Source: an uncultured delta proteobacterium (GTDB taxonomy: Bacteria; Desulfobacterota; Desulfomonilia; UBA1062). From it: 64,000 nt of DNA. The translations under genes were made by a program, and so were the position numbers. The notes beneath the pieces are model-generated. The model worked only from the letters and a program-made list of their open reading frames with translations, was not told where the DNA came from and made no database searches. Location of the stretch: the NCBI GenBank assembly GCA_963785235.1, contig CAWAUM010000009.1:14069-78068 (forward strand), read 5' to 3'. Shown piece after piece: positions 144 to 57,824 of the stretch. Within the stretch, counting starts at the first letter, position 1. Every line of letters starts with the position of its first letter.

Positions 144-206
144 AACCCAGATTTTGCGTTTAGGACGTTTTAAAAACCTGATCCGTTCAAGTCCTGTCAT
201 CTTACA
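144..206 (-). repeat. Truncated copy of dispersed hairpin element (outer IR, short flank and start of one arm)
   Basis: AACCCAGATTTTGCGTTTAGG..TAAAAACCTGATCCGTTCAAGTCCTGTCATCTTACA matches the start of the copy at 35710; no second arm. Strand for this family is arbitrary: + means long flank on the left. Confidence 0.75.
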
Positions 207-439
207 ATATTTATCGAAAGCTTATTTTCTTGGTCCTGAAGAGTGGAATCTCTCCTTTGTGTAGAGTGAATTGTTCTTATAGTAATCGTTGCTTCATCCG
301 CGTCATCGGCGAGTATAGATTATATTCAGAACTATTCAATATCTTTAAAGGATTGATCATGGAATGTTATATTCAGTTTCTTTGGGCTTATAGAACCATT
401 GATTTTATTGCAAAATCATTAGTCTGAGAAAAGTGAAGA

Positions 440-857
440 TTATTGGCACTTGAATGTATCCCGATAGCTTGAGACGTACTCAGGCCTCGGATATGCGAAT
501 CTCGCCTCTTTCAGCACAAAAGGTTCTCTAAACACGTCGGACATCATTCTCAGAACTGAGACAAACTCCCTCTCATAGATGAAGCGGCGGATATCTTTCA
601 GGTCGATAAGCTCTTTCATTGTTATATATGCAAGGGGCTCCACCACGCTCAGTTCATAGCTGAAATACGTCAGGGTCCGATACCAGTTAAGCCAGCCTGC
701 GCATGACTGACATTTCCTGATTTAGGCTTACGAACATCTCGGGATCATCCAGGTCTTAGGGTTTTATACCGCTGAATGCCAGCAGCTTCTCAGCATCGAT
801 GCCCCGTCCTGCGGCATAACGGGCAAGGATGTCGATGCTGTTGATTGAGCGATACAT
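440..857 (-). pseudogene. Remnant of AraC-family regulator (N-terminal ligand-binding domain only)
   Basis: Minus strand reads MYRSINSIDILARYAAGRGIDAEKLLAFSGIKP*DLDDPEMFVS..., then ...EARFAYPRPEYVSSYRDTFKC; in-frame stops and no HTH. Confidence 0.6.
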
Positions 858-1009
858 CGGCAGGGATGATCTCGATGCAAGGTGAATTTTATCAGGAACA
901 GTTTTTTTCAAATATCTACCTGTGGCAGCTAATCACAATATAATTGTCAATACGCAACAAGATAAATTATATTGCATGAGAACAATTCAATGTAGATGGA
1001 GGGTCAACC

Positions 1010-2011
1010 ATGGGGTACATATATCTGAAAATACGGAATGTCAGTGCATCTCTATGGGTTGAAATTGTAAACCCGCCAGTCAACTTCCTCACCACCAAAG
1101 TGGTGGAGGAGATTTACTCCCTCATCAAGGAAGTGGAGAAAGACCAGTCCATACGGGTATTCATCCTCACCGGCGGCATTGAGGACACCTATATCCGGCA
1201 CTTCTCCATCCCGGAGCTCGTCCAGCTCAATCCTGACCTCAAGAAGATCTTCTTCGACAAGGTTTTTGCATCGAGGATTGCAGGAAGGCTTTTCGCCTGG
1301 GGGACGACCATGACAAACTGGCTCATGGATTGGATCCCCGGGCTTGAGGAGATGCTGCTAAAAATGACAAAGGCCTTCAGCGGTTACTCTTCCGGACTTT
1401 ACCTGTGGTTCATGATGCATCGGCTTTATTTCGCCATCGAAAGGATGAACAAGATCACCATTGCCGCCATCAATGGCTCCGTAAACGGCGGCGGAGCCGA
1501 GATGTCCGCCTGCTTCGATTTCAGGTTCATGATCAATGACCAGGATTTTACCATCGGACAGCTGGAAGTGCTCCTCGGCATACCTCCGGGAGGCGGTGGC
1601 ACTCAGAGGTGGCCCAGGCTTATCGGCAAGGCTAGGGCCTTGGAACTCATGCTCAAAGGGGATCTGATCTCACCGGTGGAGGCTGGAAGGATAGGGATGA
1701 TAACGGGCAGCTTCAGGAAAAAAGATTTTCATGCAAAGGTTCAGGAGTTTGCAGACACCATGAGCAGGCGTCCACCTATCGCGGTCAGCGCCATCAAACA
1801 GGCCGTGCATCAGGGCATGGAAACCAGTCTTCGACAGGGTCTGAGTGTCGAACTGGAGGCGAGTGTCAATTGTTATACATCAAGCCAGACCAGTAAAATC
1901 CTGGAAAACTACAACGGCTACATCAAGGAAAAGATAGAGGCCCCGGATGCTAAACCGGCCACCATAGGGGATACGATCACGATGCTCGAAAATGGAGGTC
2001 CAACGAAATGA
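1010..2011 (+). CDS. Enoyl-CoA hydratase/isomerase (crotonase) family protein with a long internal insertion
   Basis: NPPVN, TIAAINGSVNGGGAE, GIPPGGGGTQRWPRLIG motifs; GGAGG RBS. Confidence 0.85.
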   Translation: MGYIYLKIRNVSASLWVEIVNPPVNFLTTKVVEEIYSLIKEVEKDQSIRVFILTGGIEDTYIRHFSIPELVQLNPDLKKIFFDKVFASRIAGRLFAWGTTMTNWLMDWIPGLEEMLLKMTKAFSGYSSGLYLWFMMHRLYFAIERMNKITIAAINGSVNGGGAEMSACFDFRFMINDQDFTIGQLEVLLGIPPGGGGTQRWPRLIGKARALELMLKGDLISPVEAGRIGMITGSFRKKDFHAKVQEFADTMSRRPPIAVSAIKQAVHQGMETSLRQGLSVELEASVNCYTSSQTSKILENYNGYIKEKIEAPDAKPATIGDTITMLENGGPTK

Positions 2012-2105
2012 AGGATCTGTCGGGTAAAGTATTTCCCAAGACAGCGGTGAGATTCCCTGCATGGAGCTTTGAATTCATTATCAGGCACAACAAAGGAGAA
2101 TATTC

Positions 2106-6358: not shown

Positions 6359-6370
6359 CCTCTGGATTTC

Positions 6371-6688
6371 CTAACAGCTTGAGCAACCGCCGCCGCAGTC
6401 AGAAGCCTTTTTCATGCCTGAGCTTATGACAAACCCTTCGCCGCCTGGCGAAATTACATAATCCACCGTGATGGGTTTTGCGTCCTGCAGAAGCTTTTTC
6501 TCGATCAAAAATGTGAACCCGCCGTTTTCGATTACCTCGTCGTTTTCATTTGACTCATCCAGAGCCATCCCCAGCTGGGGTCCGCCTCAGCCAATCCCTG
6601 AGACGAATATCCTCAGGGGCTCTACCTTATCGCGTGATTTAAAGAACTCTGTAACCTTCTGGGTTGCCTTTTCCGTTACTTCAAACAT
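6371..6688 (-). CDS. HesB/IscA-like selenoprotein (in-frame UGA = Sec at 6587-6589)
   Basis: Joining ORFs 6587-6793 and 6371-6568 through TGA gives MFEVTEKAT...SGIG-U-GGPQLGMALDE...CGGGCSSC, 105 aa; the adjacent paralog has Cys at this position. Confidence 0.88.
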
Positions 6689-6799
6689 GCCAGCGTTCTC
6701 CTCTCTAGAGTATTTCGTATGGGACTTATCGGTTAGTTGCTTATCTTGGAATAAATTATCAATGGCACCGCCATACTGGTGGCGCCATGTCAACGTTTC

Positions 6800-7117
6800 C
6801 TAGCATCCGCAACAGCCGCCGCCGCACTCGCTTGTCTTTTTCATGCCTGATGAGATGATGAATCCTTCGCCCTGGGGTGTTACGACATAATCCACCTTGA
6901 TGGGCTTTGCCTCTGCAAGAAGGGGTTTTTCGATGAGAAACTTGAATCCTTGTGCCTCAAAGATTTCATCGTTCTCCCCGGGTTCGTCAAGCGCCATCCC
7001 GAGCTGGGGTCCGCTGCAACCCGCGCCGGCAATGAATACCCTCAACGGGGAAATGCCGTCACGCGATTTGAAGAACTCTTTCACCTTCTCTGTTGCCGTT
7101 TCCGTCACTTCAAACAT
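6800..7117 (-). CDS. HesB/IscA-like protein, Cys-containing paralog
   Basis: GAGCSGPQLGMALDE and C-terminal CGGGCCGC; same length as, and collinear with, the Sec copy. Confidence 0.9.
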   Translation of the reverse strand: MFEVTETATEKVKEFFKSRDGISPLRVFIAGAGCSGPQLGMALDEPGENDEIFEAQGFKFLIEKPLLAEAKPIKVDYVVTPQGEGFIISSGMKKTSECGGGCCGC

Positions 7118-8828: not shown

Positions 8829-9051
8829 AATCCGGGTTTTGCGCTTGAATGCACCCATAAATACTCAATGCACAACAGGCGCTCTTTAAGTATAAAACTC
8901 ATAGTGCCATGGAATTGTTTTTTAATTAGGTCCGTTCAAAACATCAATCTTGCAGCCTTGAAGGACCGATATAATTAGCGCTCCACAAAGGCTGCAAGAT
9001 TGATGTTTTGAAGGAAAAAGGTTTTACGGTTCTTAAATGCAAAATCCGGAT
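8829..9051 (+). repeat. Dispersed hairpin element, full copy; loop orientation A
   Basis: Outer IR AATCCGGGTTTTGCGCTTGAA / TTAAATGCAAAATCCGGAT; inner arms TTCAAAACATCAATCTTGCAGCCTT / AAGGCTGCAAGATTGATGTTTTGAA. Confidence 0.92.
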
Positions 9052-9087
9052 CGATAAGATGGACTTGTTCCTATTCATGAACGAAAA

Positions 9088-9651: not shown

Positions 9652-10989
9652 ATGGGAAGGATTGGTGCATTACTCGTTGTATTGTCCGCATCGATCTTTT
9701 CTGCATGCTCACATCTGGATAACGATGTTAAGCAGTGCTACACATGCACCAATCCGGTTGTCACTGTGCAGAGCTGTACCGCAGCCATTGATTCAAGACG
9801 GATTTTCGGGTTGAGGCTCGCCGACATGTATGTCCGCCGGGGGATCGCCCACGACAGCAATGGCGAGTATGACCGTGCGATCCCTGACTTCGACCAGGCC
9901 ATTGCCCTGAACCCGTATTTATTCGAGGCCTTCTACAATAGGGGGTATGCCCTGGAGAAAAAGGACGAGCACGACCGGGCGATCAAGGATTTCGACCGGG
10001 CCATCCAGCTGGTCCCGGACCACGCCGCCACGTTCATCAACCGAGGTGTATCATATCGCAACAAGGGCGATTATGACCGTGCAGTAAAGGATTTCACCAA
10101 GGCCATCGAAATTAATCCAACGTTATTCACCGCCTATTACTCTCGAGGGTATACCTTCGAATTAAAAGGCGAACACGACCGCGCAATGACGGATTTCGAC
10201 CAGGCCCTTGCCCTGAACCCGAAATTCCCACGCGTATTCATCACCCGTGGTTTCATTGAAGAAAGCCGCGGCGAATACAACCGGGCCATCCTTGACTATG
10301 ACCAGGCCATAAGCCTGAGCCCGCGGTATTCCACTGCGTTTTTCAACCGGGGTAACGGCTATCTGCGCGGCGGCGAATTCGACCGTGCCATCAAGGACTA
10401 CGATCAAGCAATTAAGGTCAATCCGAAATATGCAAATGCCTTCAATAACCGGGGTAATGCTTATCGCGGCAGGGGTGAGCACGATCGAGCGGTTTTGGAT
10501 TACAACCAGGCAATAGACTTGGATCCATACGATGCAAATAAATTCAAGAGCAGGGGTATTGCCGGATTCTGTATGGGGCAGTTCGGTTCTGCCTTGCAGG
10601 ACCTGGAAAAAGCAATGCAATTGAAGCCCGAAGATCCCTACGCGGTTATCTGGCTGTACCTGACCCGGGTCAAGCTGGGTGGAGATGCGAAGGGTGAACT
10701 GGCAAAGAACGCGGCACAGCTGAACCTGCAGGTATGGCCGAAAGAGGTGATCGGCCTGTATCTGGGGAAAACAACGAAAGAGACAGTACTCTCTTCTGCA
10801 AAAAACCCTGATCCGAAGAAGGAACAAGAAATTCGGTGCGAGGCCTTTTTCTACCTTGGCGAGGAGGCGTTGATACAAGGCAGAAAGCAAGATGCCAAGG
10901 TGCTTTTCCGAAAGGCCCGTGATACGAAGGTTACGCACTTTATTGAATACATCGGTACCGAGGTTGAGCTGAAGCGGCTGGTGCCATAA
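9652..10989 (+). CDS. TPR-repeat lipoprotein with NlpI-like C-terminus
   Basis: Lipobox FSAC; about 8 34-aa TPRs (AFxNRG..YDRAIxDxDQAI); DPYAVIWLYL, CEAFFYLG, FIEY. Confidence 0.9.
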   Translation: MGRIGALLVVLSASIFSACSHLDNDVKQCYTCTNPVVTVQSCTAAIDSRRIFGLRLADMYVRRGIAHDSNGEYDRAIPDFDQAIALNPYLFEAFYNRGYALEKKDEHDRAIKDFDRAIQLVPDHAATFINRGVSYRNKGDYDRAVKDFTKAIEINPTLFTAYYSRGYTFELKGEHDRAMTDFDQALALNPKFPRVFITRGFIEESRGEYNRAILDYDQAISLSPRYSTAFFNRGNGYLRGGEFDRAIKDYDQAIKVNPKYANAFNNRGNAYRGRGEHDRAVLDYNQAIDLDPYDANKFKSRGIAGFCMGQFGSALQDLEKAMQLKPEDPYAVIWLYLTRVKLGGDAKGELAKNAAQLNLQVWPKEVIGLYLGKTTKETVLSSAKNPDPKKEQEIRCEAFFYLGEEALIQGRKQDAKVLFRKARDTKVTHFIEYIGTEVELKRLVP

Positions 10990-12675: not shown

Positions 12676-12823
12676 AACCCGGGTTTTGCAGTTAAGAGGA
12701 GTAAAAAAACTTGATCCGTTAAAAACCTCAATCTTGCAGCCTGGAAGGACCGGGAAATTAACATGCCGCAAAGGCTGCAAAATTGAGGTTTTTAACGGAC
12801 CTATTTAAAAACAGTTTCCATGG
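12676..12823 (-). repeat. Dispersed hairpin element, long flank truncated; loop orientation B
   Basis: Arms TCCGTTAAAAACCTCAATCTTGCAGCCT / AGGCTGCAAAATTGAGGTTTTTAACGGA (12715-12799). Confidence 0.9.
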
Positions 12824-13759
12824 TTAAACATCTCCGAGCCCGGGTTCCTCGCCTGGTCTCCATACCCTGATCCCCTCGGCCAGGAACAACCCTTCGACGG
12901 CATCCAGCTCGGAATCCGTAGGTACGCGTATATCAGGACCCTCCGGGAGCCCCAGCCACCGGCGTTTACCATCCCCCATGGGGTGGAAGGGCACTATGGT
13001 CAGGAAGGATATCCCGAGCCCGTTGAGAAAGCCTGCCCAGCCCTTTACATTTTCCTGTCCGTCTGTCATACCCGGCACCAGAGGAAGGCGTGGCCTGACA
13101 GGAGGGCCCTCCTGCCTGCCCCAGGCCTCCGCAAGGGACTTCAGGTTCTGTTTGATCTCCGTGTTGCTCACCCCGCATAACAGCCTGTGCCGGGACTCGT
13201 CATAGACCTTGATGTCGAAGAGCACGAGCTGAAGCTCCTGAAGGAGGGGCTGCAGCCTCTCCGGATTGAAGTATCCACAGGTCTCCAGGGCGACTTCAAT
13301 GCCTTCGGCGCGCAGCGACCTCGCCAGCCTGGCAGCAAATTCCGGATAGAGCGTCGGTTCCCCTCCGGTAAAGGTCACGCCGCCTCCGGAGGTCCTGAAA
13401 AGGGGAAACTCGGGTCTGAGTTCCTCCACGATTTCTTCGGAAGTCAGGGGGATGCCGAAGCGCGTCATGGCGCCCGAAGGGCAGCTGTCAATACAGGTAA
13501 AGCAGTATCTGCATTGTTCGGCATCCCTTTTCCCCACGTGGGCCAATGCGTTCCCCGGGCAGTTTTTTACGCACCTTGTGCAGTTGATGCAAAGATGCGA
13601 TTTGAAGGCTATGTCGACTACAGGCTTCCAGGATTCGACGTTCTGGCACCAGACACAGCGCAGGGGGCAGCCTTTGAAAAAGACCAGGCTCCGCATCCCC
13701 GGACCGTCATGGAGGCAGAAATGCTGCAGGGAGAAGATGAGCGGCTCAGGTGATGCCAT
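12824..13759 (-). CDS. Glycyl-radical enzyme activating enzyme (radical SAM with ferredoxin insert)
   Basis: HDGPGMR..FFKGCPLRCVWCQN, CINCTRC/CRYCFTC, GGVTFTGGEP. Confidence 0.92.
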   Translation of the reverse strand: MASPEPLIFSLQHFCLHDGPGMRSLVFFKGCPLRCVWCQNVESWKPVVDIAFKSHLCINCTRCVKNCPGNALAHVGKRDAEQCRYCFTCIDSCPSGAMTRFGIPLTSEEIVEELRPEFPLFRTSGGGVTFTGGEPTLYPEFAARLARSLRAEGIEVALETCGYFNPERLQPLLQELQLVLFDIKVYDESRHRLLCGVSNTEIKQNLKSLAEAWGRQEGPPVRPRLPLVPGMTDGQENVKGWAGFLNGLGISFLTIVPFHPMGDGKRRWLGLPEGPDIRVPTDSELDAVEGLFLAEGIRVWRPGEEPGLGDV

Positions 13760-19986: not shown

Positions 19987-20427
19987 ATGAAAGCACCTAG
20001 TTCATCGGATCTTTTGCAGGCTGAGAAGCAGATTATGGCAGGGGTTTACGGCAGGCTCAACAACCGTTACCGAAGGCGTTTCCCGGCCGAGACCGTATCG
20101 GCCCTGGCACGCGCCGTTACGTGGGTCCTCTTCAATATTGAACCTGAAGATGAGGCTGCCCTTCAATTCACATCGGTTTATCAAGACATAATCGATGCCG
20201 AAATAAAGAATCTCATGGAAGATGAGGAAATCAGAAGGGTCGTCACCGACACAGTCGTGCTCAAGGCCGTGTTTTTACACCGGCAGCAGGGCTGTAAAAG
20301 CGATTCCTACATGAAGACAATCGAGCACCTGAAGCGCTCCGGCATCTTCCTTGAAGGAGAGAATCCGCCTACTCCCAAGGGCTATATCGAAATGGCCAAG
20401 GAGTTTTATACGGCAACACCGTGGTAA
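19987..20427 (+). CDS. Hypothetical protein
   Basis: 146-aa ORF filling the gap; no family recognised. Confidence 0.6.
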   Translation: MKAPSSSDLLQAEKQIMAGVYGRLNNRYRRRFPAETVSALARAVTWVLFNIEPEDEAALQFTSVYQDIIDAEIKNLMEDEEIRRVVTDTVVLKAVFLHRQQGCKSDSYMKTIEHLKRSGIFLEGENPPTPKGYIEMAKEFYTATPW

Positions 20428-20561
20428 AGCATGTGCAGTAAAAGTTTTTAATGCTCGGTAGATTGTCTTTCATCACATAGATATCCTGTGATATTAACTG
20501 GTGGTACTGCCCTTATTATAAGGGGCTGAGAATATAATCTAAAGTTCGAATGTGAGACACC

Positions 20562-21327: not shown

Positions 21328-21344
21328 GTCCGGGCCTCAGGTTA

Positions 21345-21566
21345 AATCCGGATCTTGCGTTTGGATGTATCCATCAATACTTTAGGCACTTAAGGTAACC
21401 TTGAGCATAGAATTCATTACAGCCATGGTAGTGCTTTTTTTAATAGGTCCGTTCAAAACCTTTATCTTGCAGCCTCGAAGGACTGATAAAATCTGCGTTC
21501 CTCAAAGGCTGCAAGATAAAGGCTTTGAACGGAAAAAGGTTTTTGCGCATCTCAAACGCAGAATCT
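21345..21566 (+). repeat. Dispersed hairpin element, full copy; loop A
   Basis: Arms TCCGTTCAAAACCTTTATCTTGCAGCCT / AGGCTGCAAGATAAAGGCTTTGAACGGA (21448-21533). Confidence 0.92.
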
Positions 21567-21652
21567 ACGGTTTATGCAATTATCAGATTGATTAAACGGT
21601 CCGGCTTCTATAATATTTTGCGGTTACTTTGATAGAGAGAAGGAGTTGCTCC

Positions 21653-23530: not shown

Positions 23531-23748
23531 ATCCCAGATTTTATGCTTGAAGAGGTGTAAAAACCTTTTTCCGTTCAAAACCGTTATCTTGCAGCCTTTG
23601 AGGCATGCAGATTTTATGGGTCCTTCTCGGCTGCAAGATAACGGTTTTGAACGGACCTGTTTAACAAAAGCAAAACCATAGTCTATGGCTAAAGCCACCT
23701 GAAGTGCATTGAGTATGCATAGGTACATTCAATTTCAGAATCCGGATT
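23531..23748 (-). repeat. Dispersed hairpin element, full copy; loop A
   Basis: Perfect 27-bp arms TCCGTTCAAAACCGTTATCTTGCAGCC / GGCTGCAAGATAACGGTTTTGAACGGA (23570-23655). Confidence 0.92.
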
Positions 23749-26206: not shown

Positions 26207-26395
26207 AATCCGGATTGTGCGTTTAAGGAGTGTAAAAACTTGGTCCGTTCAAAACCTTTATCTTGCAGCTTTTGAGGAACGTTAGTTTTATCAGCCCTTC
26301 AAGGCTGCAAGATAAAGGTTTTGAACGGATCTATGAAAAAAAGCACTACCATGGTCGTAATGAGTTCTATTCTTAAGTTCACCTGAATCGCACGC
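26207..26395 (-). repeat. Dispersed hairpin element; loop A
   Basis: Arms TCCGTTCAAAACCTTTATCTTGCAGC / GCTGCAAGATAAAGGTTTTGAACGGA (26244-26329). Confidence 0.92.
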
Positions 26396-26400
26396 AATGC

Positions 26401-26775
26401 CTATGGATTGTTAATCTTGAATTTGACCGAGGCCTTTGTATCACCTTCAATAATCAGTATGGCTCCATACGATCCCTTGGGAAGGTCATTGAACCACCAC
26501 CATTTGGTCCAATTCTCAGGAACATAATCCTTGTATGTCTTCACGACAGTTCCTGTAGAAAGGTCACTTATCCGAACCGTTACATTATGCCCGCCACAGC
26601 CTGTAACAACCACTGCGGGTATTTCGCCTGCAGCGTATTGATCTACCCGCATAGTATAGTTACCGGCCTTAACATCAACCTGACGGGACATGTGTATGTC
26701 CTGGGGAACAGCAGCACAGCCGAACATGAATACTACTGATATGAATACGAGAACGGATGATAATAGTTTTATCAT
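26401..26775 (-). CDS. Hypothetical lipoprotein
   Basis: MIKLLSSVLVFISVVFMFGC lipobox-like signal; AAGGAG RBS. Confidence 0.65.
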   Translation of the reverse strand: MIKLLSSVLVFISVVFMFGCAAVPQDIHMSRQVDVKAGNYTMRVDQYAAGEIPAVVVTGCGGHNVTVRISDLSTGTVVKTYKDYVPENWTKWWWFNDLPKGSYGAILIIEGDTKASVKFKINNP

Positions 26776-32436: not shown

Positions 32437-32452
32437 AAGCAACCTGGTAGAA

Positions 32453-32668
32453 ACTTGGCGTTTAAGAAGCGTAAAAACCTTTTCCGTTCAAAACCTTTAT
32501 CTTGCAGCCCATGAGGACAGCAGATTTTATCAGTCCTTCAGGGCTGCAAGATAAAGGTTTTGAACGGACCTATTAAAAAAAAGCAATACCATGGTCGTAA
32601 TGAGTTCTCTACTTAAGGCCACCTGAAGCGCATAGAGCATTATAGGTACATTCAATTGCAAAATCCGG
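32453..32668 (-). repeat. Dispersed hairpin element, full copy; loop A
   Basis: Perfect 28-bp arms TCCGTTCAAAACCTTTATCTTGCAGCCC / GGGCTGCAAGATAAAGGTTTTGAACGGA (32483-32568). Confidence 0.92.
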
Positions 32669-34709: not shown

Positions 34710-34786
34710 CTCTTCATGAAGGCAGCCGGAGATCACTGACAATGACAGGGAAGAATCGACCCCAGTCCAAAGAGAGGAGACAAGGC

Positions 34787-35691: not shown

Positions 35692-35709
35692 TCCATGTGG
35701 CTTTGGATT

Positions 35710-35933
35710 AACCCGGGTTTTGCGTTTGAAGACGCGTAAAAACCTGATCCGTTCAAATCAGTCATCTTGCAGCCTTTGCGGAAGGCTCATTATCTCGGTT
35801 CTTTAAGGCTGCAAGATGACTGATTTGAACGGACCTATTTTTAAAAACAATTCCATGGTCACTAATAGTGTTATGCTTACAACCACCAGAGATAAATGGG
35901 GCAATTATGGGTACATCTAAACGCAAAATCCGG
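35710..35933 (-). repeat. Dispersed hairpin element, full copy; loop A
   Basis: Perfect 29-bp arms TCCGTTCAAATCAGTCATCTTGCAGCCTT / AAGGCTGCAAGATGACTGATTTGAACGGA (35748-35833); outer IR CCGGGTTTTGCGTTT / AAACGCAAAATCCGG. Confidence 0.93.
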
Positions 35934-35946
35934 CATCAATAACATT

Positions 35947-37291: not shown

Positions 37292-37339
37292 TATTATGAG
37301 ACCACTGTAGAACCTTCCAAGCATTTTGTTGCGATATCA

Positions 37340-37402
37340 AAAAACCTTACCGTTCAAAACATGCATCTCGGTGAAGCCGAGATGCATGTTTTGAACGGTC
37401 CA
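37340..37402. repeat. Mini-variant of the hairpin element (inner arm and loop replaced)
   Basis: Perfect 23-bp arms ACCGTTCAAAACATGCATCTCGG-TGAAG-CCGAGATGCATGTTTTGAACGGT (37349-37399), preceded by AAAAACCTT as in the short flank. Confidence 0.85.
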
Positions 37403-37570
37403 ATTTTTGGTTTTCATCTCAGAGATTTAAGGTTATGCAAGGGTCTTATATATCACCTTCGCTATCGCCTCTTTGATTGCATCATGACATCCTGACCAAA
37501 ATACGCTATATCACAGGAGCAGCCACGAACCCAAAGGTTGCGTTATTTTCATAAAGAGCAGGAGGAAACA

Positions 37571-38330
37571 ATGCTGAACGAGAAGATCGAAGACGGAATC
37601 ATCATCGCGACGTTCGAAAACGGAAAGACGAATTCCCTTACTCTGGATATGCTCAGGGGACTGAGGGGCAATGGTGAAGAGGGCCAATGAGGATTATGCT
37701 ATCAAGGGTATTATCCTCACAGGCGCAGGCAGGACATTCTGCAGCGGGTTCGACCTCCCCATGTTCATGGGGTTCAAGGATATCAAAGAGGTCGGTGACT
37801 TCTTTGACGAAGTTGAAGAAATCCTTGTGGAGCTTTTCATGTGCCATAAACCGGTTGTCTCTGCCATAAACGGGCATGCCATTGCAGGCGGGCTCATCTT
37901 TGCCATGGCAAGCGACTACCGTATCGTCAAGAACCACCCCAAGATCACCATCGGCATGTCCGAGATCAAGCTGGGTCTGGCGCTTACCATAGCCCAGTCC
38001 GAGATCATGAGGTTCGGGTATGACACGAACAAGAAGTTCCGCGACCTCATGTACTTCGGCAGGATGTTCGATATCAACGCTGCCAAGGAATATGACATCG
38101 TGGATGAGATCGTGGAAGAGGCGGACCTCATCCCCAGGGCAAAGAAGATCGTTTCAAAGTGGATAGACAACCCGGGCAGGGCATTCATAAAGCTCAAGGA
38201 AGGCCTGAAGAAACCCACTGCGGACAGGATCAGAAAGAGACTTGCAGAAGAGGACTGGAAGCCGGGCTTCCAATGCTTCTTTGACAAGGACGTAAGAGGG
38301 GCCATCGAGTTCGTGATGGCCATGATGTAA
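37571..38330 (+). CDS. Enoyl-CoA hydratase/isomerase family protein (apparent indel near 37660)
   Basis: GGAGG RBS then MLNEKIEDG; FCSGFDL, KPVVSAINGHAIAGG, MSEIKLG. Confidence 0.88.
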
Positions 38331-44867: not shown

Positions 44868-44907
44868 ATCCGGGTGAGGGAAGCAATAATCCCTCATCCG
44901 GATTTTC
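44868..44907 (+). terminator. Probable intrinsic terminator of gap
   Basis: ATCCGGGTGAGGGA-loop-TCCCTCATCCGGAT followed by TTT. Confidence 0.55.
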
Positions 44908-44920
44908 ATTACATGCCCTG

Positions 44921-45042
44921 GAGCCAATTGCGAAAGCCCAAGATTGTCATACCTGCGAAAGCTTCGAATCCAGTCTTTTCAGAAACTTCTGGACCCCCGC
45001 TTTCGCGGGGGTGACACCTTTTTTTAGTTTTGCAATTGCCTC
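44921..45042. repeat. REP-like doublet inside an outer inverted repeat
   Basis: GTCATACCTGCGAAAGC..AATCCAG...CTGGACCCCCGCTTTCGCGGGGGTGAC flanked by GAGCCAATTGCGAAA / TTTTGCAATTGCCTC. Confidence 0.65.
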
Positions 45043-45067
45043 CCTGTCTTTAAAAACCCATTTTGTC

Positions 45068-48333: not shown

Positions 48334-48346
48334 ACTGAATAAGGAC

Positions 48347-48485
48347 TTGTTTTTAAAATAGGTCCGTTCAAAACCTTAAAGATCGCAGCCTTTGTGGAAT
48401 GCTGATTGTAGCGGTCCTTCAAGGCTGCGATCTTTAAGGTTTTGAACGGATCAGGTTTTTACACTTTTTGAACGCGAAATCCGGG
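48347..48485 (+). repeat. Dispersed hairpin element, long flank truncated; loop B
   Basis: Perfect 30-bp divergent arms TCCGTTCAAAACCTTAAAGATCGCAGCCTT / AAGGCTGCGATCTTTAAGGTTTTGAACGGA (48363-48450). Confidence 0.92.
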
Positions 48486-48780
48486 GTACTATAAAAAGCA
48501 TTTGCACGTTGTTTTTTTAATTACCTGAGAGTATAAATGCCCTGTCTCCTGTGCAGAGTAACGGATTGACGGGGGCTAAGAGCTGAAAAAATCCGATGCA
48601 ATGTGCCTGCATAATTGAATGTTCTGATATAGGGCATGAGCATTTATAATTTTTTTGTATTATGCACAGGAGACCATCCTTTCATACCTCACCTCCTTTT
48701 TTAATAGTATTGAATCGAAAACAAATAGCACATACAATGGATGCATTGACCTTAAAAAGGGCATTGAAATGTCTTGGAAT

Positions 48781-50092
48781 ATGAGTCTTTTGAAAAACCT
48801 TGCATCATTGCGGCTTACTGTGGGGCTTCTGCTCTGGCTCGCCTTTCTGTGTATCCTCGGCACCATCATACCCCAGCAGCCCTTTCCCTCTGCAGCCGGT
48901 GTGCCCTTTGCCATGCATGTCATCAGCTTGTTGAGCCTGAGAGATGTATTCCATTCACTGTGGTTCCTCATCCCTGCGGCTGCGCTCTGTTTGAACGCAC
49001 TTGCCTGCATGTACCTGTGGAGGAAGGCCTTTTGGCGGGTCAACTTCCATGCCCAAGGCCCTACTGTACGAGGTAACCATTCCCGGTGAAGGCGCTCAGG
49101 ATCGGATCAGTGCGGATCTCACCAGCTTCATGAAAGGCACGCACAGGACTTGCCACAGCCAGGAGGGCCACACAGAGATTATCATGGGTGAAAAGGGGAT
49201 GCCCCGTAAGTTTGCGCCGTTTATGGTGCACGGCAGCATCCTTCTCATCCTGCTTGGCGCAGGCCTGGGGTTTCTTGGTTACAAGGGGAGCCTTGAAGTC
49301 CCTGTGGGCCAGGCTTCGGACACGGTCACGCTGAGTAACGGAACAATCATGCACCTGCCTTTTCAGGTCCGTTGTGATGACTTCAAGATGGAGCTCTACG
49401 ACAACGGCATGCCCAAGGAATACCGCTCAGAGATATCGTTCCTTCAAGGAGACAGGGTTGTTCGGCACGCATCCGTCCTGGTCAATCACCCGGTGAGCTT
49501 CAGCCGTGTCCTGTTCTCGCAGAGCGGATACAACGCCAGTCCGGTTGCTGCAATACAGGTGAGCACCCCTGCAGGCAATGACCAGATAGATGCAGCCGAG
49601 GGTTCGGTCATTGAGTTGCATGACACCGGGTACAAGGCCCATGTGGTTAAGGTTGTGGAGGACATCATGCATATGGGCCCCGGGGTCCAGCTCGTCATCG
49701 AGACACCCAAGGGCGAGCAGGAGGTATGGGTCTTCAAGCAGATGGAGAAGATCCTGGCCATGCATCCCGGGATCATTGAAAAGATGCCCCAGTTCAATCC
49801 ATCACTGGTTAAGCCTTATACCTTTTCCCTCAAGGACGTCACCCACAGCTATACGACGATACTCGGCATCAATTACGACCCGGGTATCATCTTTGTGGGG
49901 CTCGGGTCCGTGCTCTTCATGGCAGGCATCTGCATTGCCTTCATGGTTGTCCATGAGAGGGTCTGGATCTCCCTGGAAAAGCTGCCCCAGGGGCTGACAA
50001 TCAAGGTCGCACAGCGCAGCAATGGAAAACCGACTGCCGTCAGCCCGCGCTTTCTGGAACACCTCAACAGCCTTACCGGGGTGAAATCATGA
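48781..50092 (+). CDS. resB: Cytochrome c biogenesis protein ResB/CcsB (apparent indel near 49030)
   Basis: LASLRLTV..ILGTIIPQ, DVFHSLWF, VHGSI, VNHP, YDPG. Confidence 0.88.
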
Positions 50093-50889: not shown

Positions 50890-50904
50890 TATATCTGCGT
50901 GGGG

Positions 50905-51050
50905 GCCACGGAAGTGCTTCTTTAAATTAGGTCCGTTCAAAACATCAATCTTGCGGCCTTTGTGGAATGTCAATTTTATCGGTCCTTTAAGGCCGCAAGA
51001 TTGATGTTTTGAACGGAAAAGGTTTCTACGATTCATAAACACAAGATCTG
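50905..51050 (+). repeat. Dispersed hairpin element; loop B
   Basis: Perfect 29-bp arms TCCGTTCAAAACATCAATCTTGCGGCCTT / AAGGCCGCAAGATTGATGTTTTGAACGGA (50932-51017). Confidence 0.92.
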
Positions 51051-51174
51051 AAATTGAAGATCCAGCATGTAAACAGGCAGGAGTAATCACAGGCAGGACT
51101 AATCACTTGATTCTTTCGACGTAAGACAGTACATGGTACCTGAAATTATCCTCATGAGACAGGAGAATGACACT

Positions 51175-51824: not shown

Positions 51825-53690
51825 GTGAAGGTCGCACTCATCCAGCTTGTGCTGCAATCCCATGACTATGTCTATTCCCTTGAGAACATGCCCCTGGCCG
51901 CAGGGTACCTGGCTTCTTATGCATCGGCTAGGAATGTACCTGCAGACATCATCATCTGCCCTGCCGACATTTCAAACCTTGGCGGGGATGCGGCAATCCT
52001 TGGCTGGGTCGAAGAGATCCGGCCCGATATGGTGGGGTTCAGCTGTTACCTGTGGAACGTCCAGCGCACACTGCACCTTTGCAGCAAGATCAGGCAAAGC
52101 CTTCAGGATTGTATCATCGTGCTGGGCGGGCCCGAGGTAACCCGGGATAATGATTTTCTCCTGAGTCACGAGGGCTTCCACTTCGGCGTGGTGGGAGAGG
52201 GCGAAGAGACCTTTGCAGATCTGCTCAATGCCGCAGCCCATGGCATGGAAGGTGTCCTCGATATCCCGGGTCTCATGGTGAGACAGGGTTCCAAGGCCGT
52301 GTTCACCAAACCGAGAAGCCTCATGACCAACCTGGACAGCGTGCCTTCCCCCTACCTGAGCGGTATGCTGACCCCGGGTCTGAACAGGGGCATGGTCATT
52401 GAGACCGTAAGGGGCTGTCCCATGCGGTGCGCCTACTGCTACTATCACAAGAGCTCCCCTGTGGTGCGTACATTCAGGGCAGGCCGGATAGGCGAAGAGC
52501 TCAGGTGGGCCACAGAGAAAGGCATCCAGGAGGCGACTGTCATTGATCCCTGTTTTGCAAGGAGGCCGGGCCTGGAGGTGCTCCTTGCAGAAATGGCAGT
52601 TTCCAGGGAAGAGAAGATGCGTTTCAGCTGTGAACTGATCGCCGAGGATATCACCCCTGTTCTTGTGGACGCCCTTGTTGCAGCAGGGCTTCACCACGTG
52701 GAGATAGGGCTCCAGAGCACCAATGAAAAGGCGCTGCGCAACATCAACAGGCCCTTTGAGCGGGAGGCCTTTATCCAGGGCGATAAGGCTGCTCCGTTCA
52801 GCAGGGGTAAGGGTTATGACGGATATCATGGTGGGTTTGCCGGGCGATACCTTGGACGATGTGAAGCGTTCCATGGATTTCGTGCTTGCGCACAACCTCT
52901 GCGATGACCTGAGCCTCTATCCCCTGAGCATCCTGCCCGGCACGAAGCTCAGGCAAAAGGCCCTGCAGTTCGGCATCGAGTATGAGCACGAGCCGCCTTA
53001 CCTTGTCACAAAGACGTTTGACATGGATCGTGATGACATCCGTGAGGCCTTCATCTATGCCGAAGATGCAACAGGGAGAGACCTGTTCCCTGTTGAGCTT
53101 CCGCGCCTGGGCGGCAGCAAAGGGGCACAAAACCGGGAAGATCGTCCATAGGATCATTATGGATGATAATGGCAAAAGCCTTGATGTTTCACCCGGCGAG
53201 ATAGGACAGGCCCTTTGCATCGAGGTGCCTGGCAATGCCCTCCTGAAAAGCCCGGATTCTCTCAGGACAAAGGTGCAGGCACTCCTTGAGGAGAACCCCT
53301 ATACGCTGGTGAGCTGGATCGTGCCTGAAGAGGCATTCAGTATGGATAAGACAACAGAATTCATAACCTCTGTGGGCATGGGCAAGGCACATCCCATAGA
53401 CAGTGAATACATGGCCACCTATACCCCCATGAGGTCATGCCAGCTCTTTCTCAAGGGCAGTGCAGGAAAGGGTGGATACATCTATACACAGATACCGCTT
53501 GTTCCGGACCCATCAAGACCCATCTGGGCTGCCCTGCCTGAAGATGCCGGGCCCGAAGAGGAGCAGGCGCCATAGCCGGCGTATGGAAGGGCTCCTGGGT
53601 TTCAAGCCCGATATCCGCTATCATGACCTGGAGGCTGAACGGCACGATGCCCTTGATGACCTGCTTACGGAAAGGAGCGTATCAATCTGA
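51825..53690 (+). CDS. B12-binding-domain radical SAM protein (several apparent indels)
   Basis: PLAAGYLAS, VGFSCYLWN, GGPE, GEGE, ETVRGCPMRCAYC, IGLQS, GLPGDT. Confidence 0.85.
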
Positions 53691-53735: not shown

Positions 53736-53955
53736 AGTCCGGATGTTGTATTTAAGATGCGTAAAAAACTGATCCGTTCAAAACATCAATCTTGCGGCCT
53801 TTGTGGAATGTTAATTTTATCGGTCCTTTTAGGCCGCAAGATTGATGTTTTGAACGGACCTGGTTTAAAAACAATACCGCGGTCACTATGAGTATGAGGC
53901 TTAAAGCCGCCAGAAGTGCATAGTATGTTCTTGGATTTAATTACATAATCCGGGT
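53736..53955 (-). repeat. Dispersed hairpin element, full copy; loop A
   Basis: Hairpin 53773-53858 with the short flank on the left. Confidence 0.92.
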
Positions 53956-55401: not shown

Positions 55402-55457
55402 AATTCAGATTGTGCGTTTAAGATAAGTAAAAAAACGGATCCGTTCAAAACTCCATC
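55402..55457 (-). repeat. Truncated copy of hairpin element (outer IR, short flank and start of arm)
   Basis: AATTCAGATTGTGCGTTTAAGATAAGTAAAAAAACGGATCCGTTCAAAAC. Confidence 0.75.
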
Positions 55458-55545: not shown

Positions 55546-55887
55546 ATGCCCATAGTCCTCAAAACGACCCTGCTGCTTATCCTCTCAAACCTCTTCATGA
55601 CCTTTGCCTGGTACGGCCACCTCAGGAACCTGAATACGCGCCAGTGGTACATTGCCGCATTTGCAAGCTGGGGCATCGCCCTGTTCGAGTATATGCTGCA
55701 AGTGCCTGCAAACCGCATCGGGTTCCAGCAGCTCAATCTCCCCCAGCTCAAGATCCTTCAGGAGGTCATAACGCTGTCGGTCTTTGTGCCGTTTTCGATT
55801 TTTTACATGCAACAGCCTTTAAGGCTCAATTATCTCTGGGCAGGGATTTGTCTGATGGGTGCCGTGTACTTCATTTTTCGCACCTGA
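55546..55887 (+). CDS. DMT family small membrane protein (DUF486-like)
   Basis: SNLFMTFAWYGHL, SWGIALFEY..QVPANRIG, QLKILQEVITL. Confidence 0.9.
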   Translation: MPIVLKTTLLLILSNLFMTFAWYGHLRNLNTRQWYIAAFASWGIALFEYMLQVPANRIGFQQLNLPQLKILQEVITLSVFVPFSIFYMQQPLRLNYLWAGICLMGAVYFIFRT

Positions 55888-55917
55888 TAAGTCTCCCTTA
55901 GGATCTGCCAGGGATTC

Positions 55918-56139
55918 AAACCAGATTTTGTGTTTGATTGTATCCATAATTGATTCATAAATCTCTGGTGACCTTAAGCATAGCACGCATAGTGATCATG
56001 GAATTGTTTTTAAAATAGGTCCGTTCAAAACATCAATCTTGCGGCCTTTGTGAAATGTTAATTTTATCGGTCCTTTTAGGCCGCAAGATTGATGTTTTGA
56101 ACGGATCAGTTTTTTACTCATCTTGAACGCACAATCTGA
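55918..56139 (+). repeat. Dispersed hairpin element, full copy; loop B
   Basis: Hairpin 56020-56105 with the long flank on the left. Confidence 0.92.
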
Positions 56140-56198
56140 GATGAAAAAAATCAGGCCCGAAATCCTCGCAATCCGAACAGCTGTCAAAAGACCAAATT

Positions 56199-57539
56199 TT
56201 AAAGAGGGATGTCCTTGAGCAGTCTGTTAGCAGGCGAGCCTTCAACGGTCCGGCTGAATTCCTTAAGTATCCCTTGTAACCCTTCAGGTTCATCTTGTGG
56301 GGGCATGGTGATGCAGGCAACGCCGTATCCCTCCAGCGCCTCAATGACTGAAGTCACGGTAATGGTGCCCGGGTCCCTGGCAGGCATGTAGAGGGTTTTC
56401 TCATCGCCCGGCGAAGCCGCCTCAACGATGATACCGGTTTCGCACAGCTCATGAAGTATCTGTTTTGTGAGGACTACCGGCAGGCCAAGCTGATCGGATA
56501 TGTCGGAAGAGCCGGGCGCGGGTGATCCCGTTGCGAATCCTGCCACAACACGGTGCGCGACTGTAAGGCTGATGAGCTTCTTTTGAGAGGGATTTATCCT
56601 GTGCATGTCCAGCTCGATCCCGCATGCATGTGCATTTTGATATGCGTAAGAAAGCTCGGCCCCGAACAGCACGATGAACCAGCTGAGCTGAAGCCATACA
56701 AGGAATAGGGGCAGGGCGGCAAAACTGCCGTAAATGGCATTGTAATGGGCCACCCCGACCTGAAAGTAGATGTAGATCCTCTGCACCACGACAAAGATAA
56801 TCCCCGCCACCAGGCCGGCCGTAAGACATGAAGCAGTATTTACCTTGGTATTGGGTATGAAGGCATACATGAAGGCAAGGAGTATCCATGTGAGGCAGTA
56901 GGGGATCAGTTTTATCAGGGTTGTTATGAAGAAGGAGAAGATCCCCACCCCGAGGCTGCCGGTGATGGAGTTCATCTGTGCATTGACCATGACCGTAGAG
57001 CTGCCGGAGATGATGATGAGGATAGGTGCGACAAGCATGATTGCAAGGTAGTCGCTGACCTTCCGGCTGAACGACCTGTGCCTGGTCACACCCCAGATGC
57101 TGTTAAAGGAAAGCTCGATGTTTTCGAGCACCTTGATTACCGACCACAGGAGCACGATGATGCCGACTCCGGCAAGCAGACCGCCTTTTGTGCTGTCCAG
57201 GAGACGGCGGGAAAACTCAATGACATACACCACCACCTCCTGGTGATCGGCCATATCTTCCATGAGGCGCTGCTCCAGGAGTTTCTGAAAACCGAATCCC
57301 TTGGCAATGGCAAAGGCTACGGCAGCAATAGGGACGATGGACATGAGGGTGAAGAAGGTGAGAGCGGATGACCGCAAGGCGCAATTGTCAGCGTCATATT
57401 TTCTCAAGGTGATGGAAAGGATCCTGAAGGAGGCTATGAAAAACCTTTTTATCCTCGGTAAGTCCTTAAGGGAGATTTCCCATATGCCCTGCTTCAGGAA
57501 AAATCTGATGGCTTCAAGATTATCTACTTTGTCCTTCAT
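56199..57539 (-). CDS. YihY/BrkB family membrane protein with C-terminal wHTH-like domain
   Basis: SALTFFTLMSIVP, IELSFNSIW, YNAIYGSFAALP..GAE. Confidence 0.92.
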   Translation of the reverse strand: MKDKVDNLEAIRFFLKQGIWEISLKDLPRIKRFFIASFRILSITLRKYDADNCALRSSALTFFTLMSIVPIAAVAFAIAKGFGFQKLLEQRLMEDMADHQEVVVYVIEFSRRLLDSTKGGLLAGVGIIVLLWSVIKVLENIELSFNSIWGVTRHRSFSRKVSDYLAIMLVAPILIIISGSSTVMVNAQMNSITGSLGVGIFSFFITTLIKLIPYCLTWILLAFMYAFIPNTKVNTASCLTAGLVAGIIFVVVQRIYIYFQVGVAHYNAIYGSFAALPLFLVWLQLSWFIVLFGAELSYAYQNAHACGIELDMHRINPSQKKLISLTVAHRVVAGFATGSPAPGSSDISDQLGLPVVLTKQILHELCETGIIVEAASPGDEKTLYMPARDPGTITVTSVIEALEGYGVACITMPPQDEPEGLQGILKEFSRTVEGSPANRLLKDIPL

Positions 57540-57677
57540 GGATAATCCCCTCCTCGTCACATTCAAATGCACCCCTGAGTGCTTGATATTTTAAATAACC
57601 GCAAAGGATGTAGTGCAAAAATAGAATCATCCTTGAACAAATTCTACCACGATCTCAAATCCAGGGGTAGTTTCATC

Positions 57678-57824
57678 TAATGGTAGTGTTTTTAAATCAG
57701 GTCCGTTCAAAACCTCAATCTTGCAGCCTTTGTGGAACGCTAACTTTATCGGTCCGTCAAGGCTGCAAGATTGAGGTTTTGAACGGATGAGTTTTTTTAC
57801 ATATCTTGAACGCAAAATCCGGGT
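57678..57824 (+). repeat. Dispersed hairpin element, long flank truncated; loop B
   Basis: Perfect 29-bp arms TCCGTTCAAAACCTCAATCTTGCAGCCTT / AAGGCTGCAAGATTGAGGTTTTGAACGGA (57702-57787). Confidence 0.92.

Follow-up and report, generated by a model that had tools for sequence, protein, structure and literature searches.

Does a repeat that recurs between genes throughout 64,000 nucleotides of bacterial DNA (the window, the whole stretch analysed here) represent a mobile element, a host signal or something else? A sequence-only reading had described it as a dispersed, non-coding inverted-repeat family at 15 places, with no enzyme of its own in the window. Searching with an nhmmer profile made from 7 copies, we recovered the same 15 sites, which comprise eight full-length copies, four copies truncated on one side, two fragments and one short-hairpin variant, and which together cover 2,481 bases (3.9%) of the window. 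The 12-mer of the hairpin foot, TCCGTTCAAAAC, occurs 26 times with at most one mismatch on the two strands, against 0.29 expected, a count matched by none of 100 shuffles. The proposed layout is borne out as well. An outer inverted repeat of 12-20 bp (CCGGATTTTGCG / CGCAAAATCCGG) closes the whole element, and an 86-bp hairpin module is set between a short flank of ~37 bp and a long flank of ~100 bp, the latter ending in ..CCATGGAATTGTTTTTAAAATAGG (consensus of alignment A2). The hairpin has a 29-bp stem whose middle part covaries, an almost invariant foot of 12 bp (TCCGTTCAAAAC / GTTTTGAACGGA) and a pseudo-symmetric loop of 28 nt. Its length is exactly 86 bp as claimed, in 10 of 12 copies rather than in 9. 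The 12 copies taken as full need a larger correction: eight are truly full length, and the other four (12677, 48337, 50898 and 57680) lack the first 59-69 model positions, so that little of the long flank is left and the outer repeat on that side is gone. Element size is about 150-235 bp, in long and short forms, and both halves of the outer repeat (at most 4/12 mismatches each) are present in six of the eight full-length window copies.

On the plus strand, full-length copies lie at 8829..9053 (nhmmer 8840-9051; hairpin 8931-9016, loop state 'flip'), between the stops of a DAHP synthase gene (8819) and a minus-strand response-regulator gene (9088); at 21345..21570 (nhmmer 21356-21569; hairpin 21448-21533, 'flip'), at the 3' end of a rhomboid gene, with the PEPCK start 60 nt further on; and at 55918..56142 (nhmmer 55930-56141; hairpin 56020-56105, 'flop'), between convergent DMT_6 and BrkB genes. 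Those on the minus strand are 23531..23745 (nhmmer 23531-23734; hairpin 23570-23655, 'flip'), downstream of PEPCK and of PEPCK's own terminator-like hairpin; 26208..26408 (hairpin 26244-26329, 'flip'), whose distal outer repeat has decayed, 22 nt after the stop of an HGD-D gene; 32451..32659 (hairpin 32483-32568, 'flip'), 15 nt after the stop of a hydrolase gene; 35710..35892 (nhmmer 35710-35925; hairpin 35748-35833, 'flip'), 19 nt past the final segment of an ADP-ribosylglycohydrolase gene broken by frameshift, with the MatE start ~7 nt beyond the copy; and 53737..53937 (hairpin 53773-53858, 'flip'), between convergent genes with a radical-SAM stop at 19 nt and with ACTGAA common to both flanks. 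One truncated copy, 12677..12825 (hairpin 12715-12799, 85 nt, 'flop'), is on the minus strand between convergent Crp-type and radical-SAM genes and has lost its long-flank side. The other three are on the plus strand: 48337..48486 (hairpin 48363-48450, 88 nt, 'flop'), beginning 4 nt past the carB stop; 50898..51052 (hairpin 50932-51017, 'flop'), 9 nt after the stop of a ccsA-type gene; and 57680..57823 (hairpin 57702-57787, 'flop'), between two minus-strand genes with the CheX stop at 88 nt. Both fragments, on the minus strand, retain the outer repeat and the short flank, followed by the first ~10 bases of the hairpin foot at 145..239 (model positions 121-213, E 1e-10) and by only the 12-nt foot at 55404..55455, which lies between divergent genes. 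The short variant at 37339..37405 (no strand assigned), 40 nt after the MatE stop, is a 51-nt perfect hairpin (37349-37399; 49.8 bits with covariance model R1) that has the foot common to the family, ACCGTTCAAAAC.

We searched for relatives of the element and for an enzyme. No Rfam family was matched at gathering score, generic miRNA hairpins alone appearing below threshold, so the element is unknown to Rfam; plasmid and phage collections left it unmatched, and a full-text literature search for its motifs found nothing. A scan of 185,579 species genomes (GTDB species representatives) gave 37 loci, 23 of them in one MAG; the 14 elsewhere reach only 20-35 bits with R1, against 55-108 bits for family members. 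Among these representatives the MAG is therefore the one carrier of the family besides the window. It holds 24 copies, six of them orthologous with window copies, and is 90-96% identical to the window over seven common stretches. The earlier claim that the window encodes no transposase, RAYT or recombinase was upheld by a Pfam scan of 149 ORFs (69 + 80; 148 of at least 100 aa and one of 94 aa), which found only housekeeping families and none of the transposase, Y1/HUH, integrase or invertase families. Around 16 MAG loci not overlapping the window, the 53 ORFs lying within flanks of at most 2 kb likewise belong to housekeeping families only.

The same comparison bears on whether the elements arose in assembly or sequencing, for example as collapsed or chimeric palindromes. 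The window does show many 1-bp frameshifts relative to the MAG, and its base-level accuracy is consequently imperfect. We nevertheless rejected an artefact, whose probability we put close to nil, because the independently assembled MAG has elements at six orthologous positions, with locus-specific stem subtypes kept, and because the flanks are not alike between copies.

Pairing in the hairpin is strongly maintained. In 35 hairpins, 95.8% of the cells of the 29 pairs of helix 1 are paired, and double changes at 13 of the 29 pairs have kept the pairing, values reached by none of 500 shuffles; the consensus hairpin folds at -54.9 kcal/mol. The loop occurs both ways round relative to the flanks, with 22 'flip' and 13 'flop' among the 35 hairpins (MAG copy L026 judged by eye) and seven and five, respectively, among the 12 window copies. 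Between window and MAG it has been inverted in situ in three of six orthologous pairs and is unchanged in the other three, including the 8829 copy and its orthologue L019, although, the MAG being a short-read population consensus, a flipped loop there may reflect a polymorphism or, with lower probability, a choice made in assembly. In 50932/L007 and 56020/L012 stem and flanks were retained around the inverted loop, and in 32483/L025 the stem subtype was altered as well.

Such a fold could suggest a family of structured small-RNA genes, each with its own promoter and a defined strand and fold, as the sequence-only reading had allowed. The stem covaries, and folding of the complete element is far more stable than that of shuffles, on one strand as on the other (z = -7.3 and -7.0). 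Both strands, however, fold equally well, as for any palindrome, and the sub-threshold Rfam matches give the idea no help. Loop and flanks are found in either orientation, as are whole elements relative to genes; G.U does not exceed A.C on either strand (G.T versus A.C mismatches 11 vs 12, or 14 vs 9); and RNAalifold finds 0 conserved pairs in the long flank. The structured-RNA option is thus unsupported, and we regard it as very improbable.

Divergence between window and MAG separates the parts of the element. Third codon positions differ at 14.3% of 3,769 sites and other intergenic DNA at 10.7% (120/1117), while the short flank differs at 14.3% (31/217) and the long flank at 13.7% (58/423). 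The hairpin differs at 4.1% (13/320) in five pairs, against 11.2% (58/518) for the flanks of the same pairs (Fisher p = 3e-4), and at 7.8% (30/384) in all six, against 13.9% (89/640; p = 0.003). These hairpin rates exclude the 22 positions used for locating the MAG loci, which lessens the bias towards well-kept copies that comes from finding orthologues by exact hairpin feet, although part of it remains. The hairpin, then, diverges 2-4 times more slowly than the flanks and, loop included, is better conserved than third codon positions, whereas the flanks, outer inverted repeat among them, drift neutrally at about the synonymous-site rate (~14%). Since the same sites are occupied in a genome 14% diverged at third codon positions, the copies are old and vertically inherited. 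Similarity of hairpin and similarity of flank are decoupled among copies: over 271 non-orthologous pairs the mean identity is 0.82 for the hairpin and 0.66 for the long flank (r = 0.14), and copies 53773 and 56020 share 0.99 of the hairpin with a flank identity of only 0.65.

These rates weigh on the reading of the family as classical MITEs of the TIR type, that is, an internally deleted IS with outer repeats (CCGGATTTTGCG...) to which a DDE transposase binds in trans, which implies AT-rich targets, a short duplication and a hairpin that is a mere passenger. Outer inverted repeats are detected in 16 copies overall (at most 4/12 mismatches per half), and long and short forms of 150-225 bp fit the prokaryotic MITE features listed in excerpts of PMC10969869. 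There is also at least one presence/absence difference with element-precise ends, of the kind for which empty sites in a related genome had been suggested as a check: at 23745/23746 in the window an element-sized gap corresponds to an extra, diverged copy of 158 bp in the MAG (L003 2185-2342), flanked by ATTTA / TTTTA where the empty site reads ATTTACG, hence by (A/T)TTTA. Alternatively, this single 'insertion' in the MAG may reflect a precise deletion along the window lineage. Evidence for a target-site duplication is weak: agreement is better within than between copies only in the 7 nt next to the CCGG ends, at 4.06 against 3.45 of 7 positions (permutation p = 0.008 with 16 copies, 0.034 with the 12 independent ones), in one register chosen out of six tried. 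Against this reading, the part cast as passenger is the most conserved one, its history is decoupled from that of the flanks, and 15 of 39 sites have no long-flank end yet keep the hairpin intact (save two fragments and the short variant at 37339). No partner IS was found among the window ORFs or in the MAG flanks. The outer repeats were not upheld as the defining ends of the element, the inner hairpin being the conserved unit, and, flanks and outer repeats being without constraint, present-day mobility through them is unproven. We consider the classical reading possible but doubtful. Compared by description with Correia of Neisseria and Chunjie of Geobacter uraniireducens (excerpts of PMC10969869), the family resembles prokaryotic MITEs in that copies are non-coding, 150-235 bp long and bounded by inverted repeats, fall into long and short size classes, occupy AT-rich intergenic sites close to the ends of genes, would give transcripts with very stable stem-loops and have often lost one end; it differs in that its terminal repeats are not the conserved part, its target duplication is weak and no parent IS is known.

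A conserved hairpin in drifting flanks recalls REPINs and their RAYT transposases (Bertels and Rainey 2011; PMC3116915). On that model what replicates would be the 86-bp hairpin, recognised as single-stranded DNA through its foot by an HUH tyrosine transposase encoded once, and the outer flanks would be remnants or part of the target. According to excerpts of PMC3116915, REPINs are extragenic and of high copy number, with invariant inverted 16-mers 71 or 110 bp apart, a less conserved spacer with frequent compensatory changes on its two sides, a long hairpin in single-stranded DNA or RNA, and a paired unit better conserved than its surroundings. Here, two near-invariant inverted 12-mers lie 74 bp apart around a less conserved but compensated spacer, the hairpin is kept at orthologous sites while the flanks drift, and the copies are extragenic, dense and vertically inherited. 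Unlike in REPINs, the arms are not themselves short palindromic REPs, and the foot (A1 consensus, inspected) carries neither the GTAG nor the CGTC tag given in excerpts of PMC3733652. Two conserved flank modules, closed by the outer inverted repeat, invariably surround the hairpin, 12 of 12 window copies retaining at least 20-28 nt of both inner flanks and none being hairpin-only, and neither the window ORFs nor the MAG flanks contain a RAYT or other Y1 transposase gene. We judge a REPIN-RAYT-type system rather unlikely.

The position of the copies raises the alternative that the hairpins are host cis-elements at 3' ends, under selection and no longer mobile, such as bidirectional terminators, mRNA 3' stabilisers, RNase III sites or binding sites for nucleoid or topology proteins. 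Each of the 12 full or truncated copies has the stop codon of a flanking gene within 90 nt, five lying between convergent genes, seven in tandem and none between divergent starts; in seven the element starts at most 23 nt past the stop, so another terminator has no room. Truncated copies have lost the sequence between stop codon and hairpin and kept the hairpin, and the stem, whose stability and conservation also agree with such a role, reads alike on both strands and so would serve whichever way round it lies. If a stable hairpin were all that selection favoured, however, the sequence of the 12-bp foot and the loop would not be held constant. The T-run stands 5-6 nt off an AT-rich stem base, not directly after it, and a simple terminator scan of 20-38 kb flagged none of five full copies nor the short variant. 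A canonical terminator (23470-23520) already precedes the 23531 element, and the family has turned over between window and MAG genomes. We consider a primarily host cis-element possible but doubtful.

We think it probable that the family is a new member of the MITE/REPIN kind, small non-coding, non-autonomous palindromic repeats moved in trans and then shaped by selection and template switching. The copies would have been spread by an enzyme encoded elsewhere, which might be a transposase acting on the outer repeats or an HUH/RAYT-like enzyme that recognises the hairpin by its invariant foot. Template switching during replication, from one arm to the other, would keep the arms complementary and invert the loop, and occasional conversion between copies could swap whole hairpins. 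As described in excerpts of PMC8604942, a template switch from one inverted-repeat arm to the other makes the two arms alike and flips the spacer, and excerpts of PMC8794818 add that such switching can create and maintain hairpins; it would account in one step for arms that stay complementary through multi-base changes and for loops that are exact reverse complements at one and the same locus. Those cases concern yeast genes and RNA hairpins, unlike the bacterial repeat family here, and the process leaves the conservation of the loop and foot sequences unaccounted for.

Comparison by description (in part from excerpts of PMC10969869) places the family near BIME, ERIC/IRU, BOX, RUP and SPRITE, which also combine a palindromic unit with short and long linker modules as mosaics in transcribed intergenic DNA after genes, some with terminator-like hairpins; unlike in those, the core here is one long, perfectly paired hairpin whose loop flip-flops. 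These small palindromic repeats form a non-coding family not described before, interesting and not categorically new, and belong to an ordinary kind of bacterial junk or mobile DNA. Their hairpin presumably persists because it is useful, most likely as a very stable 3'-end RNA hairpin (a barrier at transcript ends, a weak terminator or an RNase III site) or as a protein-binding palindrome, uses that would both be independent of orientation.

Exact-seed repeat finding in the window returned repeat families of 5-11 copies with a common core, and a profile made from seven well-kept copies called 15 sites of 52-216 bp in the 64 kb, 2,481 bases in total or 3.9% of the window. These are the 15 places at which the sequence-only reading had put its copies, and the layout it described is upheld: an outer repeat (CCGGATTTTGCG / CGCAAAATCCGG), a long flank whose terminus reads CCATGG..TTGTTTTTAAAATAGG, a hairpin, a short flank of ~37 bp and the outer repeat again. 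That reading had also counted 12 full copies, nine of them with a hairpin of exactly 86 nt. This length is typical, but it holds for ten of the 12 (85 nt in the hairpin starting at 12715, 88 nt at 48363), and only eight are full length, the other four lacking the greater part of the long flank together with its outer repeat. Two further window sites are fragments, and the site at 37339 contains a 51-nt variant of the hairpin whose foot, the 12-bp hairpin base, is unchanged. With one mismatch or fewer, the foot 12-mer occurs 26 times on both strands vs 0.29 expected, and none of 100 shuffles came near this count. The CCGGATTTTGCG / CGCAAAATCCGG halves, at ≤4/12 mismatches each, were found in 16 copies, including six of the eight full-length window copies; the four truncated window copies have one outer end only, and the outer ends of copy 55918-56142 pair in the predicted fold. 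ORF and Pfam scans found no family-bearing ORF inside the window sites.

Related copies were sought in species-representative genomes, among which the window's own genome did not come up, using a pattern of two 11-nt feet at 40-70 nt spacing with the interior left free. Since only exact feet satisfy this pattern, the scan would have overlooked diverged families of other lineages. The scan yielded 37 loci, 23 from one related genome (contigs CAYMDG01..., here the MAG) and 14 others. Over seven common stretches the MAG and the window are 90-96% identical; the MAG contains 24 distinct copies in the retrieved loci and has orthologues of six window copies. Its record bears the name 'uncultured Bacteriovoracaceae', after a family of predators among the Bdellovibrionota; the genes of the window and of the MAG flanks look like those of strict anaerobes (benzoyl-CoA/2-hydroxyglutaryl-CoA-type enzymes, sigma-54 regulators), and given this gene content the label may be unreliable. 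The 14 non-MAG loci (Marinobacter, Binatia, others) were rejected as relatives, since they have only the 11-nt feet in common and score 20-35 bits with R1, a covariance model of the hairpin, vs 55-108 for members. Those of Marinobacter (L002, L008, L011, L016, L021 and L027) belong to a different long palindromic repeat with 11-nt feet identical by chance and a G+C-rich interior unrelated to the window family. Some retrieved loci depart from the regular layout: in the MAG copies at L022 and L033 (both at about 2105-2140) the terminus is duplicated in tandem, with a second, partial outer repeat coming after that of the short flank (..CCGGGCTAAACGCA..CCGGG); in L036 (1883-1951) a second, shorter hairpin scoring 41 bits with R1 adjoins the element; and L037 (1634-1650) carries an 8-nt duplication of the hairpin foot (TCCGTTCAATCCGTTCAAAAC).

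A comparison with Rfam, proposed in the sequence-only reading, gave no match at the gathering score over the whole window, and in E-value mode over 55880-56180 the best matches were miRNA-precursor models at 37 bits vs thresholds of 67-70; with no model at its threshold, membership in an Rfam RNA family was rejected. Plasmid and phage collections gave no blastn match to a full copy, a full-text literature search with the two 12-mers returned only two unrelated primers, and a search for MITE and palindromic repeats in Deltaproteobacteria brought up no description fitting the family.

The Pfam scan covered 69 + 80 ORFs of the window (148 of at least 100 aa and one shorter). The genes encode ordinary anaerobe housekeeping functions (PFL-like enzyme, HGD-D, radical-SAM, rubrerythrin, PEPCK, carB, cytochrome c assembly), and the window has no tRNA gene. 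Three gene calls were revised from the codon-position substitution pattern against the MAG, with concordant Pfam results. A stop codon of a flanking gene lies ≤90 nt away in 12/12 copies, that of the rhomboid gene at 21448 being uncertain owing to frame problems. Five copies lie between convergent genes, seven between tandem genes and none between divergent starts; in seven of the 12 the element starts ≤23 nt after the stop codon, and copies take either orientation relative to the upstream gene. Loss of sequence is one-sided: at least 24 model positions are missing from the long-flank end in 15 of 39 sites, as against equal loss from the short-flank end in only two (one at a contig end, one the short variant), an imbalance with a probability of about 0.01-0.02 by chance when the length ratio of 91:37 is allowed for. 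In truncated copies the lost side adjoins the upstream stop codon or terminator.

Many window genes are spread across two or three frames, namely those for the PFL-like enzyme (13880-16216), PEPCK (21629-23444), HGD-D (23770-26186), an ADP-ribosylglycohydrolase (34244-35691), ResB (48655-50092) and a B12 radical-SAM protein (51825-53151). Either the splits come from indels in the sequencing or the genes are pseudogenes; in the MAG a single intact frame of 616 aa encodes PEPCK, and a 1-bp insertion is present near 22717 in the window. A promoter-like site at 32656-32683 is composed of TTGCAA from the outer repeat of copy 32451-32659 and TATCAT in the flank; it matches at 9/12 positions, has a TG extension and faces the downstream asparaginase gene. 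TTGCAA is found at the corresponding outer end in several copies. The ends of Correia elements make promoters, and the site is reminiscent of them. The window also contains six tandem 102-bp units at 9859-10430 (63-79% identical), which correspond to the TPR repeats in the product of the gene at 9652-10989, and a pair of 154-nt direct repeats (6367-6520 and 6796-6949; 71% identical, 429 bp apart) in a region without Pfam matches.

The 12-nt feet are near-invariant in the 35 hairpins aligned, of which the 23 from the MAG were found via exact foot 11-mers. With loops normalised, the main helix comprises 29 pairs with 95.8% of cells paired, and double-sided changes occur at 13 of them. None of 500 shuffles was as high as the observed values, and slid controls were 30-49% paired. 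Stem mismatches show no strand bias, G.T and A.C numbering 11 and 12, respectively, and 14 and 9 if the flanks set the orientation. RNAalifold found no conserved pairs in 24 long flanks.

The loop occurs in two orientations relative to the asymmetric flanks, which we call flip and flop: in the window seven hairpins are flip and five flop, and the full set of 35 divides into 22 flip and 13 flop, one of them judged by eye. In three of the six orthologous pairs the loop state is unchanged. In two others (50932/L007 and 56020/L012, hairpin start in the window and MAG locus) the loop is the reverse complement while stem and flanks are unchanged, and in the last (32483/L025) the loop is inverted and both arms carry another subtype of the covarying part of the stem, loop states in the MAG being read from a consensus sequence. 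On the + strand, the loop state along hairpins 8931 to 57702 runs M three times and then P nine times (p = 0.009, by a runs test picked after seeing the pattern). That replication direction sets the loop state was rejected, as there is no GC-skew switch and the window pattern is absent from the MAG orthologues. Clustering of hairpin subtypes along the window was not significant (p = 0.085).

Divergence between the window and the MAG differs sharply within the element. It is 14.3% at third codon positions (3,769 sites), 10.7% in element-free intergenic DNA (120/1117), 14.3% in the short flank including the outer repeat (31/217) and 13.7% in the long flank (58/423), vs 3.5% in the hairpins of the five same-subtype pairs (15/430). 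Leaving out the 22 positions used for finding the MAG loci, the hairpins of these five pairs differ at 13/320 positions (4.1%) and the flanks at 58/518 (11.2%; Fisher p = 3e-4); for all six pairs the values are 30/384 (7.8%) and 89/640 (13.9%; p = 0.003), the comparison comprising six orthologous pairs at MAG loci ascertained through the hairpin feet, and a window sequence with many 1-bp frameshifts. The loop is as conserved as the stem. Since the terminal repeats drift neutrally and the inner hairpin is conserved, the hairpin, and not the transposon-like shell, is what is kept. Among non-orthologous pairs (n = 271), mean identity is 0.82 in the hairpin and 0.66 in the long flank, with a correlation of r = 0.14, and the neighbours 53773 and 56020 have a hairpin identity of 0.99 and a flank identity of 0.65. 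Hairpin and flanks have separate histories.

Copies have also been gained or lost. The MAG has an extra, diverged copy of 158 bp, absent in the window, directly after its orthologue of 23531-23745; the empty site in the window reads ATTTACG, and at the filled site the copy is preceded by ATTTA (left) and followed by TTTTA (right). The element-precise ends of this polymorphic copy speak for past movement of whole units, or for their precise excision. The gap-carB interval has a truncated copy in the MAG (L034, 1942-2119) vs ~148 bp of unrelated sequence in the window (44906-45054). This latter stretch contains a terminator-like GGACCCCCGCTTTCGCGGGGGT hairpin, unique in the window, followed by a T-run. 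An apparent empty site for copy 57680 at L012 is a run of N and hence no evidence. The 7 nt outside the CCGG ends are alike on both sides and among copies, roughly RTTRAAM. In the register abutting CCGG, one of six and chosen post hoc, 4.06 of 7 nt agree within copies vs 3.45 between copies (p = 0.008 for 16 copies, 0.034 for 12 independent copies); the other registers tried at the ends gave no signal. This weak post hoc signal hints at AT-rich target sites, perhaps with a duplication.

The family is most likely one of the non-autonomous palindromic repeats of bacteria, where its anatomy, copy number, position and absence of coding capacity place it. The hairpin design closest to that of our family is the one of REPINs, for which PMC3116915 describes inverted, invariant ends separated by about 70 bp and a spacer with compensated changes. 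However, the family's arms are not self-folding REP palindromes, and its foot has, by inspection of the consensus, none of the GTAG or CGTC tags said to mark REP ends in PMC3733652. Neither is a RAYT known here, from a search of 149 window and 53 MAG-flank ORFs. The family resembles the prokaryotic MITEs outlined in PMC10969869 (terminal repeats, long and short forms, partial copies, AT-rich sites) in all these traits, with a shell of 150-225 bp, and in being small (<~500 bp), non-coding and dispersed in many copies; it differs from them in that no parent IS is known and the target duplication signal is weak. A consensus scan of 20000-38000 for intrinsic terminators, accepting loops of 3-8 nt only, called neither the short variant nor any of the five full copies there, and by eye the T-run begins 5-6 nt past the A+T-rich stem base instead of adjoining the stem. 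Integron attC sites or an invertible segment were rejected, as the 149 ORFs include no recombinase family and the copies are separated by housekeeping genes, which lie on both strands. The family is real, dense and apparently undescribed.

The sequence-only reading had seen no enzyme that could mobilize the element, and Pfam bears this out, with no transposase, HUH, integrase or invertase family in the 149 window ORFs. Y1_Tnp was found neither there nor in the 53 MAG-flank ORFs, which come from the 16 MAG loci not overlapping the window and include no transposase within up to 2 kb of a copy. Likewise, an autonomous IS with matching ends was found neither in the window nor in the flanks (up to 2 kb) of the copies at these loci. 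The outer repeats would point to a classical transposase as the mobilizing enzyme; alternatively, the invariant foot would point to an HUH enzyme that recognises hairpins.

Replication template switching between the inverted-repeat arms could produce, in one step, both arm agreement through multi-base changes and exact loop inversion. Such switching is described as homogenising arms and inverting spacers (PMC8604942), and as able to create and maintain hairpins (PMC8794818). Since it neither slows divergence nor conserves the loop, the 2-4-fold lower divergence of the hairpin points to selection on the hairpin sequence. A palindromic stem is identical in either transcript direction or DNA strand, which makes an orientation-free role plausible, putatively as a 3'-end RNA hairpin of very high stability or a site for protein binding. 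A bolder reading, which we consider rather unlikely, is that the 86-bp hairpin is a selected, sequence-specific module with its own dedicated protein acting in trans, either an HUH enzyme resembling RAYT or another factor that binds hairpins. This protein would recognise the invariant 12-bp foot, invert the loops and copy hairpins from one site to its neighbours. On this reading the uncultured anaerobic lineage would harbour a long-term 'resident replicator' that is like a REPIN and has a new type of sequence, lodged inside the decayed shells of an older MITE.

The family occupies about 4% of the window and about a quarter of its intergenic gaps, and it will break short-read assemblies and confuse annotation of this lineage. 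To the specialist it offers loop inversion at fixed loci, a conserved core in neutrally drifting terminal repeats, and one-sided loss beside stops. It is a clean natural case of two processes usually inferred indirectly, the co-changing of palindrome arms and the inversion of a loop at a fixed locus, and a concrete case in which to ask whether selfish replication or a useful role as 3'-end structures makes such repeats persist.
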